A DNA stretch of 64,000 bases, from assembly GCF_024700885.2 (NCBI RefSeq), contig NZ_CP117016.1; one strand, written 5' to 3'. Origin of the DNA: Escherichia coli. GTDB lineage: Bacteria; Pseudomonadota; Gammaproteobacteria; Enterobacterales; Enterobacteriaceae. Every line of letters starts with the position of its first letter. The first letter of the stretch is position 1. Both the position numbers and the translations under genes were made by a program. Below the pieces are notes generated by a model. That model was given only the letters and a program-made list of their open reading frames with translations, had not been told where the DNA came from and searched no databases. This document shows positions 18,903 to 58,379 of this stretch, in pieces.

Positions 18903-19616
18903 TGATGGTGGTGGGGGAAGGATTACTCAGCGCTGCGCGCTTCACCCTTCGGGTCGTTGCCTGCGGCAACGCTTTCTCGCTGGCGCTCGAGTCGCACCTT
19001 GGTCGAAGCTTCTCATCCTTCCCCGCATGGGCAGAATATTTAATTGCGGATTCGTTTGAGAGTTCACGGACTTTTGAAAAGTGATGGTGGTGGGGGAAGG
19101 ATTACTCAGCGCTGCGCGCTTCGCCCTTCGGGTCGTTGCCTGCGGCAACGCTCTCTCGCTGGCGCTCGAGTCGAACCTTGGTCGAAGCTTCTCATCCTTC
19201 CCCGCATGGGCAGAATATTTAATCGCGGATTCGTTTGAGAGTTCACGGACTTTTGAAAGTGATGGTGGTGGGGGAAGGATTACTCAGCGCTGCGCGCTTC
19301 GCCCTTCGGGTCGTTGCCTGCGGCCACGCTCTCTCGTTGGCGCTCGAGTCGAACCTTGGTCGAAGCTTCTCATCCTTCCCCCGCTTGGGCAGAATATTTA
19401 ATTACGGATTCGTTTGAGAGTTCAGGGACTTTTGAAAGTGATGGTGGTGGGGGAAGGATTACTCAGCGCTGCGCGCTTCGCCCTTCGGGTCGTTGCCTGC
19501 GGCCACGCTCTCTCGCTGGCGCTCGAGTCGAACCTTGGTCGAAGCTTCTCATCCTTCCCCGCATGGGCAGAATATTTAATCGCGGATTCGTTTGAGAGTT
19601 CACGGACTTTTGAAAG
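18903..19616. repeat. rtT: Four tandem ~178-bp repeats of the tyrT-operon distal region (rtT/tpr-type), each starting with a copy of the tRNA-Tyr 3' end
   Basis: Units begin at 18903, 19081, 19259 and 19438 (period 178-179 bp, >95% identical); each starts with gtgatggtggtgggggaaggatt, which is the reverse complement of the tRNA-Tyr acceptor/T-arm 3' end. Confidence 0.85.
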
Positions 19617-19619
19617 TGA

Positions 19620-19704
<85 letters not shown>

Positions 19705-19738
19705 AGGGGTAATTCAAATTTTGAGGTAATGCTTGAGA

Positions 19739-19823
<85 letters not shown>

Positions 19824-49318: not shown

Positions 49319-49873
49319 TTATTTTAAGGAAAGCAACTGCTCTACGGTCATATTTTTAATTGCGCTCCGGTTTACAAGAGTCCAGCCTTGTTGCTCCAGA
49401 TAAAACAGGAAGGTATCCAGGGTGCAGACCATTGCGCCGTCAGGAACGGTTTCAGTGAATTTGATATTGCCGTGTTCGTCGAGACGGATAACCAGGGTGC
49501 GTCCGTCCCCGTGAATCATTTTGTCGGGAGACGGGGCGTTATTCTGGCGCAGTTCAGCTTCCATGCGGTCGAACTCAGCAATGTATGCCTCTTTAAATGC
49601 AGCGGCTTTTTTGCCAGTGAAGCCCATCACCAGGAAAACGAAGCCGTTTTTGGTGATTTGGTACATTGGGAGTTTGCGCCCGGTTGAGTCGGTGTATTCG
49701 CTCGACACAAAATTGTGCTCAGTGAATTTTGCTGAACAGTCCAGATTGCGAATTTTATCCAACACTCGTTCGTGGCGTTTGCCAAAGAACTCGGCGATCG
49801 CAACAGACGTAGTGACAGCGCGACCATTTTCGATGGTTACGTCAGGGTGAGAAAGGGTAAGGATAGTAGCCAT
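49319..49873 (-). CDS. Rha-family phage regulatory protein (184 aa)
   Basis: ATG at 49873 preceded by GGAGG; N-terminal motif VTTSVAIAEFFGKRHERVLDKIRNL and downstream PMYQITKNGFVFLVMGFTGKKAAAFKEAYIAEFDRME match the pRha pattern. The 100-codon upstream extension of the track ORF reads through a terminator hairpin and is rejected. Confidence 0.65.
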   Translation of the reverse strand: MATILTLSHPDVTIENGRAVTTSVAIAEFFGKRHERVLDKIRNLDCSAKFTEHNFVSSEYTDSTGRKLPMYQITKNGFVFLVMGFTGKKAAAFKEAYIAEFDRMEAELRQNNAPSPDKMIHGDGRTLVIRLDEHGNIKFTETVPDGAMVCTLDTFLFYLEQQGWTLVNRSAIKNMTVEQLLSLK

Positions 49874-50042
49874 GATGGCAGCCTCCGCGATGAATTTGAT
49901 TAACTCACCACCGAGGTTTTCCACGACCATAAGGGTGGTGAGACGTACAGGGGTGGAAATACCGGTCATCACGGAACCCGGCCAGCCTTGCGGCTGCCCT
50001 GCACGCCCCACCATAATGCGAATGTGGCTGTGCTTAACGCAT

Positions 50043-50064
50043 AAAAAAACCGCCTGAGCGCGGT
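50043..50064 (-). terminator. Rho-independent terminator downstream of the DicF-like sRNA
   Basis: On the minus strand, aaccgcgctcaggcggtt hairpin followed by TTTTTTT. Confidence 0.55.
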
Positions 50065-50352
50065 TATGCGCCGTGAATGATTTCGGGTTTCCACGCCCGG
50101 CACCCGTTTTATGAGGTGCAGGTGCACTATAATTCCACCCGTTCTGGTTTTCAATAGCTACATTCAACATTTTCTCTACCTTTCATCACCGAAGTGAACT
50201 TTGTTGATGCGGTGCCTGGTGCCTCCAGGTGATGTTAACCAGTTAACAATTAACGCCGGATACAGAGAATCCACCCATAACACTGTTTTTGGTTTTAACT
50301 GTTCCGCGTGCGCTGAGCCGCATTCACCGCATCACAAAATTCACTTTAAAAA

Positions 50353-50405
50353 GGGCGGCAGAGCAGTCACGGAGTAAAACTGATACCGCCAAAAGTCACC
50401 AGAAA
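50353..50405 (-). ncRNA. dicF: DicF-like sRNA (cell-division inhibitor sRNA of Qin-type prophages)
   Basis: Minus-strand 53 nt TTTCTGGTGACTTTTGGCGGTATCAGTTTTACTCCGTGACTGCTCTGCCGCCC differs at one position from the K-12 DicF sequence as I recall it; followed by a T-run. Confidence 0.65.
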
Positions 50406-51389: not shown

Positions 51390-51541
51390 CAGTCAGTGTT
51401 TCTGGTTAACCAGCGACGTGCGCCAGCTTCAGTTTTAAACGTTTTGCTTCTGGTATATGTCATCGCGGTAAACGTGCCGTCCTGGTTGGGAAACACGCCG
51501 CATACCAGAGATTCGTTGTTGCCAAGCTCGATAGTATCCAT
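51389..51541 (-). CDS. Small YdfA-like protein (50 aa)
   Basis: ATG at 51541 preceded by GAGG (MDTIELGNNESLVCGVFPNQDGTFTAMTYTRSKTFKTEAGARRWLTRNTD); it is the first gene after the repressor terminator, as ydfA follows dicA in Qin. The track ORF extends 27 codons upstream. Confidence 0.45.
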   Translation of the reverse strand: MDTIELGNNESLVCGVFPNQDGTFTAMTYTRSKTFKTEAGARRWLTRNTD

Positions 51542-51783
51542 GCTGACCTCATTTCCCCTTAACGCCGGGGTAGCGGAACAAAAACCTGCTGCATAGTTAT
51601 TAAAGTTGAACCCTGCCGTCATGTTCTTACGCCTCGGGCTGGCTACTTACCCCCTGACCACTGCTTGGTAACTCGAAGTATTGCCCGGCGTTCTGTGGGG
51701 CGGGGTGGGTTGGTATGTTGTTAAGGTAACAAGAGTTACCTTTCGAGTCAATACAATGTTGCAAAAGGTACATTTGAGGGCAT

Positions 51784-51807
51784 AAAAAACCCGCAATGAA
51801 TGCGGGT
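51784..51807 (-). terminator. Rho-independent terminator immediately after the cI-like repressor gene
   Basis: On the minus strand, acccgcattcattgcgggt hairpin followed by TTTTTTAT, starting 7 nt after the repressor stop. Confidence 0.6.
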
Positions 51808-51813
51808 TCTGAC

Positions 51814-52488
51814 TCAGTCTAAGTATTGATGTATTTGTGAAACTTTACCTTTAATGGTGTAACCACCATTCAGTTCGATGGGTTTGTAAAGCGGATTCAG
51901 TGACAACAGATAGATGTTTGGTCCGTCAATCGCAACTTTTTTTAGTGTTACGTTTGGCGTTCCTTCCAATTGGATTAAGATTATTTTTCCCACCAGTTCT
52001 CTAATGTTACTTGAGCATGGTGTGATCAGCACGGTAGATCCGTCGGGGATGGTTGGGAGGCCGTTAGAGTTTGTCATCGCATCTCCCTCAACATGCAATA
52101 AAAAAGAGTTTTCAGCGGTTTTTGTCATGACATCAACCCAGTTCTTAATACCAGGAATCTTGGTTACTGGACAACTCATATCCCAATAACCAGCCTGTTC
52201 CCACGTTAAAACGGGCAACCGGGCGATGTTGTCACTAATGTAAGGGTACTGATTCAGACGCAGATCATCGGTTTTATCGTGACCGTCCTTTCCATAAAGA
52301 ATCCATTCAGGAGATTTGGAAAGCAATTTTGACAGTAGATACAAATTCTCACCGTCAGGTTTTGAAGAGCCATTTTCCCATTTTGTTACGGATACACGAG
52401 ATATGCCGATTGCTTTCGCAACCTGCTGTTGGGTTAATCCAACGTCTTTTCGACGATTCCGAATACGTTCGCTGATAGTGTTTTTCAT
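51814..52488 (-). CDS. cI: CI-like prophage repressor (HTH_XRE plus S24 LexA-like peptidase domain)
   Basis: N-terminal XRE HTH (GLTQQQVAKAIGISRVSVTKWENG) and C-terminal S24-like domain; divergent from the cro-like gene. Start chosen at ATG 52488 (MKNTISERIR..., 224 aa, no SD, compatible with a leaderless PRM-type transcript); alternative start at 52530. Confidence 0.8.
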   Translation of the reverse strand: MKNTISERIRNRRKDVGLTQQQVAKAIGISRVSVTKWENGSSKPDGENLYLLSKLLSKSPEWILYGKDGHDKTDDLRLNQYPYISDNIARLPVLTWEQAGYWDMSCPVTKIPGIKNWVDVMTKTAENSFLLHVEGDAMTNSNGLPTIPDGSTVLITPCSSNIRELVGKIILIQLEGTPNVTLKKVAIDGPNIYLLSLNPLYKPIELNGGYTIKGKVSQIHQYLD

Positions 52489-52550
52489 GTAACCAATGTT
52501 ACTACCAAGTGATGTTGCTATGGTTGACATTGTTATGTAACTATTGTTAC
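52489..52550. promoter_or_regulatory. Putative operator/divergent-promoter region between cI and cro
   Basis: Two 14-bp inverted repeats of the same form, GTAACCAATGTTAC (52489-52502) and GTAACTATTGTTAC (52537-52550), plus a TTGACA hexamer at 52524-52529. Confidence 0.4.
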
Positions 52551-52579
52551 CCTTCTGCTCGAAATAACAGGAGAGTTTT

Positions 52580-52795
52580 ATGTTCAAAGATGATGTTCTG
52601 CGCTATTTCAAAAAAAAGCGACTAGTAGCTGAGGCTCTTGGAATTTCACATGTGGCTGTTGTGCGGTGGAAAGCAGTTATTCCCAAACTTCGCGCAATGG
52701 AACTGGATGAAATTACTAACGGTGAATTGAAATACAACCCAGAACTTTACAAGAAGCAGGATAGCACCTCGAACGAAGGAAAGAATGATTCATGA
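52580..52795 (+). CDS. cro: Cro-like / YdaS-family HTH regulator (71 aa)
   Basis: Small HTH ORF (RLVAEALGISHVAVVRWKAVIP) divergent from cI; AGGAG RBS; stop overlaps the next gene (ATGA). Confidence 0.7.
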   Translation: MFKDDVLRYFKKKRLVAEALGISHVAVVRWKAVIPKLRAMELDEITNGELKYNPELYKKQDSTSNEGKNDS

Positions 52796-53217
52796 AAATC
52801 AAGCATGAACACATCCGCATGGCGATGAATGCCTGGGCGCATCCGGACGGCGAAAAAGTACCGGCTGCGAAAATTACCAAAGCGTATTTCGAGCTGGGAA
52901 TGACGTTCCCGGAACTGTATGACGACAGCCATCCGGAAGCCCTGGCCCGTAATACCCAGAAAATTTTCCGTTGGCTGGATAAAGACACCCCTGATGCTGT
53001 TGAAAAAATGCAGGCTCTGTTACCGGCGATCGAAAAGGCGATGCCGCCTTTGCTGGTGGCCCGTATGCGCAGCCACAGTTCTGAATATTACCGTGAGATC
53101 GTCGAACGGAGGGATCGGCTGGTGAAGGATGTCGATGATTTTGTTGCGTCAGCGGTTGTTTTGTATGACCAGATGAATCGCGGCGGCCCGGCAGGGAATG
53201 CTGTGGTGATGCACTAA
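52792..53217 (+). CDS. YdaT-family protein (141 aa), CII-position gene
   Basis: Starts MKIKHEHI and ends ...VVMH, like Rac YdaT; translationally coupled to the cro-like gene. Confidence 0.65.
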   Translation: MKIKHEHIRMAMNAWAHPDGEKVPAAKITKAYFELGMTFPELYDDSHPEALARNTQKIFRWLDKDTPDAVEKMQALLPAIEKAMPPLLVARMRSHSSEYYREIVERRDRLVKDVDDFVASAVVLYDQMNRGGPAGNAVVMH

Positions 53218-58012: not shown

Positions 58013-58223
58013 TTTCATATTGGCGAGGTGACGGGAGTTAAGTAGAATGGCTGCGGGTGCTTGAGGCTATCTGTCTCAGGCATGAACACCAAAGGCAGAT
58101 AGAGAAAAGCCCCAGTTAACATTACGCGTCCTGCAAGACGCTTAACATTAATCTGAGGCCATATCTATGCTCTACACACGTAGGTTAGCCTCTTACGTGC
58201 CGAAAGGCAAGGAGAAGCAGGCT

Positions 58224-58379
58224 ATGAAGCAGCAAAAGGCGATGCTAATCGCCCTGATCGTCATCTGTTTAACCGTCATGGTGACGGCACTGGTAACGAG
58301 GAAAGACCTCTGCGAGGTACGAATCCGAACCGGCCAGACGGAGGTCGCTGTCTTCACAGCTTACGAACCTGAGGAGTAA
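58224..58379 (+). CDS. hok: Hok/Gef-family type I toxin (51 aa), near-identical to HokD/RelF
   Basis: MKQQKAMLIALIVICLTVMVTALVTRKDLCEVRIRTGQTEVAVFTAYEPEE; the in-frame upstream extension in the track (from 58167) is not the toxin start. Confidence 0.85.
   Translation: MKQQKAMLIALIVICLTVMVTALVTRKDLCEVRIRTGQTEVAVFTAYEPEE

Follow-up and report, generated by a model that had tools for sequence, protein, structure and literature searches.

We examined the divergent repressor–cro region of an ompW-adjacent prophage in a 64,000-nt stretch of the Escherichia coli chromosome (contig NZ_CP117016.1 of RefSeq assembly GCF_024700885.2), referred to throughout as the window. The repressor gene is read leftwards from an ATG at 52488 (minus strand) and cro rightwards from an ATG at 52580 (plus strand), with a divergent region of 91 bp between them (Table 1). 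The repressor joins an N-terminal helix-turn-helix (HTH) domain (Pfam HTH_3, 3.8e-17) to a C-terminal protease-like domain (Peptidase_S24, 1.1e-16). Its matches among PDB structures include full-length lambda cI (3bdn, E = 3.4e-14), P22 c2 (1.3e-12) and 434 cI (3.6e-5), P22 c2 and 434 cI being the best solved-structure relatives of its DNA-binding domain. A divergent P22_Cro-family gene like that of the window was found in all homolog loci examined, and a CTCC-type complement of the Shine-Dalgarno (SD) sequence lies 5′ of its start in ten of them (ccccct in locus L008). Downstream of cro lies a ydaT-family gene whose product is, by analogy, the equivalent of CII, the role in which YdaT acts in prophage CP-933P (PMC9986795). 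The left-arm genes of the prophage are of the ydfA/B/C-dicB type.

Table 1. Genes and predicted elements in and around the divergent region (positions in the window)
Feature	Position	Strand	Remarks
Repressor gene	51814–52488	−	224 aa and stop; N-terminal HTH_3, C-terminal Peptidase_S24
cro	52580–52795	+	71 aa; P22_Cro family (Pfam PF14549, 2.9e-16)
ydaT-family gene	52792–53217	+	141 aa; Pfam YdaT_toxin, 2.8e-10
Proximal operator GTAACCAATGTTAC	52489–52502		0 nt from repressor ATG; equivalent of Qin Oa and lambda OR3
Degenerate middle operator	52514–52527		6/10 half-site matches, reading TCAAC-CATA-GCAAC on the minus strand; equivalent of Qin Om and lambda OR2
Distal operator GTAACTATTGTTAC	52537–52550		between PR −35 and −10; equivalent of Qin Oc and lambda OR1
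OL1 operator GTAACAAGAGTTAC	51726–51739		inside PL-like promoter; third exact motif copy, 75 bp past repressor stop
OL2-like weaker site	51758–51771		minus strand reads GTACCTTTTGCAAC, 7/10; 32 bp from OL1, upstream of PL −35
PRM −10 candidate TAACAT	52496–52501	−	4/6 matches to TATAAT (T−12, A−11, T−7); inside proximal operator
PR −35 TTGACA	52524–52529	+	minus strand ATG-TCA-AC, the ‘MST’ of the RefSeq extension
PR −10 candidate TACCCT	52548–52553	+	TTGACA-N18-TACCCT; begins with the final three bases of the distal operator
PL-like promoter	51723–51751	−	TTGACT (51746–51751), N17, TACCTT (51723–51728)
SD of cro, AGGAG	52569–52573	+	anti-SD pairing −7.4 kcal/mol
Candidate YdaT site ATGATTCATGAAAATCAA	52785–52802		cro/ydaT junction; differs at one position from TTGATT-N6-AATCAA, the YdaT operator
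Intrinsic terminator 3′ of repressor gene	51783–51808	−	stem AACCCGCA/UGCGGGUU, then U6
14-codon RefSeq extension of repressor	52489–52530	−	operator, spacer and PR −35; judged non-coding

Operator sites around the repressor gene

A preliminary description of this DNA had proposed that the 91-bp divergent region holds two similar 14-bp inverted repeats, the first abutting the repressor start codon, and our analysis bears this out. Each of the two sites, GTAACCAATGTTAC and GTAACTATTGTTAC, consists of perfect inverted repeats (5+5) separated by 4 nt, and the proximal one is directly adjoined by the CAT at 52486–52488 that reads as ATG on the minus strand. An exact search of the window for GTAACNNNNGTTAC returned three sites against 0.04 expected, a number reached in none of 100 shuffles, which excludes chance palindromes. 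All three GTAAC-N4-GTTAC sites fall within 825 bp around the repressor gene. The third, OL1, lies on the far side of that gene inside a PL-like promoter and is accompanied by a weaker, OL2-like site. The pair of operator candidates originally described thus stands, with its spacing conserved as shown below, as part of a larger set: the site or sites at OL/PL and a degenerate middle operator between the pair had been missed.

We compared this arrangement with ten homolog loci whose repressors are 43–98% identical to that of the window, drawn from E. coli, Salmonella, Kosakonia, Edwardsiella, Hamiltonella and unassigned Logan read-assembly contigs. All ten carry two GTAAC-N4-GTTAC-type sites (0–2 mismatches) exactly 48 bp apart from start to start, and in all ten the second site ends at the base before the conserved repressor ATG. 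Nine (all except L003) have a further site in a TTGACn-N17-TAC(C/A)nT promoter 3′ of the repressor gene. At ≤1 mismatch, a second PL site upstream of this one occurs in L005 and L006 alone; there it is perfect, 34–35 bp ahead of the PL-proximal site. Elsewhere, in the window as in the remaining loci, the upstream OL site is weaker and was read from the flanking DNA, at a distance of ~32 bp where measured (the window and L002). The recognition helix SRVSVTKWE is invariant among 17 aligned homologs, from which a half-site common to them is predicted. Among the E. coli copies, polymorphic positions flank the operators and the TTGACA element and never fall inside them.

The same association emerges from a search that was blind to protein sequence. 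Scanning IMG/VR for the DNA pattern site-N34-site-ATG yielded 93 loci on viral contigs, each with the proximal operator 0 nt from the ATG, and the 27 distinct proteins that begin there are all HTH repressors. They carry ...TQQQ.A... followed by a recognition helix of the SR(V/A)(S/A/T)(V/I)(T/A)KWE type, including HTH-only repressors of 128–149 aa that otherwise bear little likeness to the window repressor. Two isolated phages, ZF40 (Pectobacterium) and vB_EcoS-733R5 (Escherichia), likewise have a pair of GTAAC-N4-G(T/G)TAC sites at 48-bp spacing, of which the second adjoins the conserved cI-type ATG, with OL-type site(s) 3′ of the gene and a repressor helix SRV(S/T)(V/I)TKWE. Their repressors are ~42–43% identical to that of the window and, in contrast to it, keep the catalytic serine of the S24 domain (GESMT). 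We found no description of the operators of either phage in the papers searched, those on ZF40 being concerned with Aca2 rather than cI, and a full-text search of the same literature for the six operator sequences of the window locus found no paper.

The middle operator lies 23 and 25 bp from its neighbors and overlaps the PR −35. Across 12 enterobacterial loci, the 34-nt inter-operator spacer is conserved only at the columns G..AAC and, eight bases on, AC, which correspond to nnAAC-N4-nnnAC in the operator register. In six distant IMG/VR loci, the middle element reads (T/C)(C/A)AA(C/G)-CAT(A/G)-, mostly followed by GTTnC. With this element the divergent region holds three operators, reproducing the layout of the three-operator OR of lambda and of Oc/Om/Oa in the E. 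coli K-12 prophage Qin. On these comparisons, we consider the locus likely to be the switch that governs immunity (lysis/lysogeny) in a Qin/Rac-like lambdoid prophage, with a CI-type repressor, a P22-Cro-type protein and GTAAC-N4-GTTAC operators at PR/PRM and PL.

Start codon and leader of the repressor mRNA

The preliminary description had also placed the repressor start at ATG 52488 and noted that it lacks an SD, and both statements hold. The 20 nt upstream of this ATG, which are the operator itself, pair with the anti-SD sequence at −3.0 kcal/mol, close to the background median of −2.5 kcal/mol in the window; the corresponding values are −7.4 for cro, −5.7 for ydaT and −10.7 kcal/mol for a P-like gene. 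Among nine homolog loci, eight give −3.8 to +0.6 kcal/mol at the repressor start and one (L010) gives −6.2. The start codon is ATG in every homolog locus. Inside the proximal operator, 7 nt (TGGTTAC) separate the PRM −10 candidate TAACAT from the AUG. No −35 is recognisable or conserved, and all loci keep a T at the second or third spacer position of this operator. Two other promoter elements were considered and ruled out: GTGACA/GTTACA, the conserved right-hand half of the middle element, as a PRM −35, as it lies 11 bp from TAACAT, and TAGAAT-type hexamers 19–24 nt before the AUG as a shared PRM −10, as their columns are unconserved.

The closest parallel is dicA of Qin, in which TAGCAT lies inside the operator at the Oa position and occupies −12 to −7 of the mapped transcription start site (TSS). 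Applied here, the dicA distance from −10 to TSS would make the first transcribed base either the C just ahead of the AUG or the A of the AUG itself. By differential RNA-seq, dicA transcription begins 3 nt ahead of its AUG, and that of racR and ymfK at 0 nt (PMC4681348 Table S3), and the strongest racR promoter is the leaderless one, with additional promoters upstream (PMC9638921). Transcripts of paaR2 in CP-933P, which has a 97-bp divergent region, are leaderless by rapid amplification of 5′ cDNA ends and N-terminal sequencing (PMC8630535). The lambda cI mRNA is also leaderless and arises from the weak, activator-dependent PRM (PMC8630535, PMC4681348). By analogy with these genes, the repressor mRNA of the window probably has a leader of 0–3 nt. 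This leaderless reading is well supported, its decisive support being homology to the Qin dicA locus.

One conflict that the preliminary description missed, although it chose the right start, is with the RefSeq gene model. As annotated by PGAP in JJ1886 and other strains, the repressor (WP_000103687.1) has 238 aa and begins at ATG 52530, which would put the proximal operator inside the coding sequence of an N-terminal arm. Lambda cI likewise has such an arm, and gene callers give 238–240 aa for relatives of 66–98% identity, in which the frame is open and an ATG or GTG lies 14 codons upstream; yet homologs below ~52% identity have 215–223 aa and start at the Met equivalent to 52488, and in L007–L009 (Hamiltonella, Kosakonia and Edwardsiella) the frame is closed by a stop 6–7 codons upstream, with no intervening start codon. 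All 17 aligned homologs (43–98% identity) keep the Met at 52488, which opens the conserved sequence MK(T/N)...RIR, and only with this start does the N-terminal register match P22 c2 and 434 cI. ATG 52530 is itself without an SD (+0.9 kcal/mol). Conservation in the extension is confined to MST, which merely translates TTGACA (read ATG-TCA-AC), and NIGY, which translates the operator (AAC-ATT-GGT-TAC). Moreover, differences counted over 33 distinct near-identical copies number 0 (synonymous) and 4 (non-synonymous) in the extension, compared with 32 and 11, respectively, in the gene (Fisher p = 0.008), as if the extension were non-coding. The annotated cI of ZF40 is over-extended in the same manner, with a GTG start and overlap with cro. 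By these comparisons ATG 52488, not 52530, is the real start and the RefSeq repressor is probably 14 residues too long; we regard it as very unlikely that the PGAP model is right.

Even with this start, the maintenance mRNA might not be leaderless: PRM could lie well upstream, for example with a −10 in the inter-operator spacer, or there might be only PRE-type or read-through transcripts from which an SD-less AUG would be poorly translated. Several observations count against the promoters as we read them. A strict sigma-70 consensus scan of 51500–52900 found no promoter, so that no consensus PRM is detectable and our promoter assignments are inferred from comparative reading; the PRM and PR hexamers match only at three to four of six positions; and TAACAT may be fortuitous in a palindromic, AT-rich operator, the distal operator having AACAAT in the same direction. 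With +1 at the AUG, the middle operator would cover −39 to −26, as against −50 to −34 (centered at −42) for lambda OR2, and this closer position means that activation through a lambda-style sigma-4 contact is not directly transferable. Some distant loci have better −10-like hexamers (TAGAAT, TTGAAT, CATAAT) 19–33 nt before the AUG, the upstream promoters of racR provide a precedent (PMC9638921), and a YdaT-type site suggests PRE. Nevertheless, no conservation is seen across 12 loci in the 11 nt ahead of the proximal operator, which hence hold no shared upstream −10, and the distance of 0 nt from operator to AUG, which a long leader would not need, is invariant across very divergent repressors. 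All of the homologous or analogous E. coli prophage repressors with a mapped TSS (lambda cI, dicA, racR, ymfK and paaR2) are leaderless or have a leader of ≤3 nt. A leadered maintenance mRNA therefore appears unlikely to us, and we retain the leaderless reading.

It could also be asked whether the repeats are repressor operators at all, rather than chance palindromes, sites for Cro alone or for a host factor, or RNA or DNA hairpins. The operators are predicted from sequence, and Cro-family genes go with the sites no less faithfully than the repressor; in the distant loci, too, the divergent gene is Cro/YdaS-like. As both genes travel with the sites, co-occurrence cannot separate repressor from Cro as their reader; lambdoid Cro and repressor share operators, however, and Cro sites are thus not truly an alternative. 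In a free-spacing scan of IMG/VR for two sites (N14–44), unrelated coding tandem repeats dominated among the matches listed, and the scan provides no unbiased rate of pairs without an abutting ATG. Those repeats (loci L106, L113, L114, L122, L165 and others) have periods that are multiples of 9 (36, 45 and 54 bp) and are probably collagen-like, a source of false positives for motif-pair scans of this kind. Against a chance or unrelated origin of the repeats stand the excess of exact sites noted above, the conservation of position, spacing and half-sites while the flanks diverge, the placement of sites at the heart of PR and PL, the two early promoters, and the single recognition-helix class returned by the DNA-only search. 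At the equivalent Qin site, Oc, DicA binds in vivo and single-base changes abolish binding (PMC3441716). That the repeats are something other than repressor operators is, in our estimate, highly improbable. At the level of sequence and comparison, the data establish the sites, their 48-bp spacing and contact with the AUG, their co-occurrence with one helix type, the lack of an SD and the true start codon.

Early promoters and proposed working of the switch

The PR −35 is kept as TTGACA or TTTGC(A/T/G) in the homolog loci, and the same element occurs at PL. The PR −10 candidate is built in part from the distal operator. This construction recurs at PL and in nine of the ten homolog loci, with none found in L003; in the distant group the corresponding hexamer is TACAAT. 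Similarly, the −35/operator/−10 construction of PL was read in nine of the ten, L003 again being without one and L008 requiring an alternative −35, TTGCAT. The PL-like promoter, which parallels dicBp of Qin, would drive the leftward operon (a DUF1391/ydfA-like gene, DicF and others). Between it and the repressor stop lies the intrinsic terminator (RNA fold −16.7 kcal/mol, z = −3.3), which a pattern scan of 51500–52900 for promoters and terminators did not list.

At the junction of cro and ydaT, ATGATTCATGAAAATCAA is probably, by analogy, the site at which YdaT, as the CII equivalent, would act on a PRE-type promoter giving a leadered repressor mRNA. CP-933P has a YdaT operator, OM, at the same junction beside a PRE-type promoter (PMC9986795). 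For the window site only the location is suggestive, as a search of the whole window for YdaT sites at ≤2 mismatches found five against 4.8 expected, not above chance. The junction is 83–91% identical to O157 strains and is the only part of the switch conserved with O157 prophages.

We propose that the switch would work as follows. Repressor dimers at the distal operator and, cooperatively, at the middle one would shut PR, and repressor at OL1/OL2 would block PL. Occupancy of the distal site may also help a weak, −35-less PRM, as DicA does at Oc in Qin, where it represses dicC and activates dicA and where single-base Oc changes abolish in vivo binding (PMC3441716). The two sites are similarly placed, with the center of Oc at −56.5 from the dicA TSS and that of the window distal site at −55.5 from the repressor AUG. 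PRM would use TAACAT as its −10 and start at or within ~3 nt of the A of the AUG, making the maintenance mRNA leaderless. Since the proximal operator covers both the PRM −10 and the start point, excess repressor, or Cro, should shut PRM, a form of negative autoregulation in the case of the repressor. A leadered repressor mRNA is probably provided during establishment by a YdaT/CII-dependent promoter of the PRE type where cro and ydaT meet. Because such a transcript is expected from PRE, a leadered repressor mRNA alone would not be decisive against a leaderless maintenance mRNA.

Relation to known switches and genomic setting

Of the features of the lambdoid CI/Cro class, the locus has divergent genes for an HTH+S24 repressor and Cro, dyad operators at PR/PRM and a second set at PL. 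In lambda, likewise, cI and cro diverge, three OR operators lie ~23–25 bp apart over PR and PRM, an OL set lies at PL, and the repressor combines HTH and S24 domains. The two differ in that lambda operators are 17 bp long and of the TATCACCGC type, as opposed to 14 bp in the window; OR3 has its center near −20 of PRM and the proximal site here would span −14 to −1; lambda Cro belongs to a different fold family; and the place of CII is taken by a YdaT-family protein. A Cro of the P22_Cro family is shared with P22. Phage 434 uses 14-bp operators of the form ACAA-N6-TTGT and the P22 operator is 18 bp long, both unrelated in sequence to GTAAC-N4-GTTAC.

The nearest characterised relative is the dicA/dicC/dicBp region of Qin. 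The N-terminal HTH domain of DicA is 54% identical to that of the window repressor over 70 aa, and the divergent gene is of the P22_Cro family in both. The outer operators are 50 bp apart in Qin and 48 bp here, with the proximal one ending 1 nt and 0 nt before the AUG, respectively, and containing a −10-like TA(G/A)CAT in either case. In both prophages an operator sits inside a TTGACn-N17 promoter 3′ of the repressor gene, driving a ydfA...dicF operon. The locus thus has the layout of the Qin DicA/DicC module and departs from it in its immunity specificity and in its repressor: DicA is a short protein of 135 aa without S24, whereas the window repressor has an Ala-Gly site and an S24 fold, with Ala at the catalytic Ser. 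The recognition helices differ as well (SHVSVSQWE in DicA, SRVSVTKWE here).

CP-933P of E. coli O157:H7, with paaR2 and ydaS-ydaT, has a divergent region of similar length (97 bp as against 91 bp) and analogues of PR, PRM and PL. PaaR2 has no S24 domain and heads a toxin-antitoxin operon, unlike the window repressor, and YdaS is an Xre-type HTH protein rather than a P22_Cro-family Cro. The preliminary description had suggested comparing operator half-sites with known immunity groups. Qin Oc is TTGTTAGTCATAACTAACAA (GTTAG-N6-CTAAC; PMC3441716) and CP-933P has four 18-bp palindromes of the GTTTAGTAA type (PMC8630535), both of which differ from GTAAC-N4-GTTAC, so that the locus is of neither immunity type. 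Judged by its sequence, the locus is a lambdoid CI/Cro switch with a previously undescribed operator specificity. This specificity (GTAAC-N4-GTTAC, helix SRVSVTKWE) is common to prophages of several enterobacterial genera and to ZF40 and vB_EcoS-733R5. The analysis further adds a well-supported candidate to the few E. coli leaderless mRNAs, nearly all of which are from prophage repressors; the general understanding of such switches is unchanged.

The S24 domain of the window repressor appears to have lost its nucleophile. Its motif GDAMT places Ala137 (codon GCG, 52078–52080, minus strand) at the position of the catalytic Ser, while the Ala-Gly (QAG, aa 98–100) and the Lys (TLKKV) are present. 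From its sequence, then, the Ser/Lys dyad for RecA-stimulated self-cleavage is not complete. At the nucleophile position, 39 of 45 fetched homologs read G(D/E)SM(T/V), four read GDAMT and two gave no match; lambda cI has GNSMT. Of the 93 IMG/VR copies, 75 have Ala, as do homologs of 98%, 89% and 70% identity; the sister lineages of 88% and 66% have Ser. In LexA and lambda cI, a Ser-to-Ala change abolishes self-cleavage. Given Ala137, the prophage is predicted not to be inducible by RecA-stimulated self-cleavage, and induction would need another route, perhaps an antirepressor. This predicted non-inducibility is relevant to the stability of the prophage and to the expression of its DicF/DicB-type cargo.

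Repressors found on the GTAAC-N4-GTTAC switch fall into S24-bearing proteins of 215–224 aa in enterobacteria and HTH-only proteins of 128–149 aa in GC-richer hosts. The six distant IMG/VR loci (L086, L017, L018, L025, L047 and L085) encode HTH-only repressors of 128–149 aa and one of 217 aa, and their cro-like gene starts 5–8 nt after an operator-built TACAAT −10, without an SD, a sequence arrangement that suggests that both divergent genes are leaderless there. We tentatively raise the possibility that the switch is a portable cassette in which operator, −10 and start codon are fused and kept while the rest of the repressor is exchanged, and which is bidirectionally leaderless in its distant members. 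If true, a bidirectionally leaderless switch would be something not reported for lambdoid phages.

Compared with other E. coli, the 64-kb window matches strain MLI114 at 100% identity and JJ1886 at 99.9%. Of 5,426 complete genomes of E. coli, ~700 carry the 1.65-kb immunity segment, among them those of ST131 strains such as JJ1886, and in all of these the start codon assigned here would correct the gene model of the repressor. Among isolated phages, megablast gave DNA matches to the flanks only and none across the immunity module, which points to mosaic exchange of that module, and tblastn found no repressor of >43% protein identity.

The left operon (49319–50404, minus strand) holds DicF (50353–50404), an isrK-like RNA (50043–50119), a C4 antisense-like RNA (49931–50018) and a Rha/Ash-family gene (49319–50170), a layout that recalls antisense-controlled antirepressor modules (P1 immI, Gifsy IsrK). 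By analogy with Qin and the Gifsy phages, the three RNAs and the Rha/Ash gene are possibly parts of an antirepressor-type control. Beyond the switch, the window also contains four RtT repeats with tRNAs (18906–19823), two rdlD antitoxin RNAs (2173–2774) and a sok/hokD module (58055–58229), the last of which sits in the right arm of the prophage.

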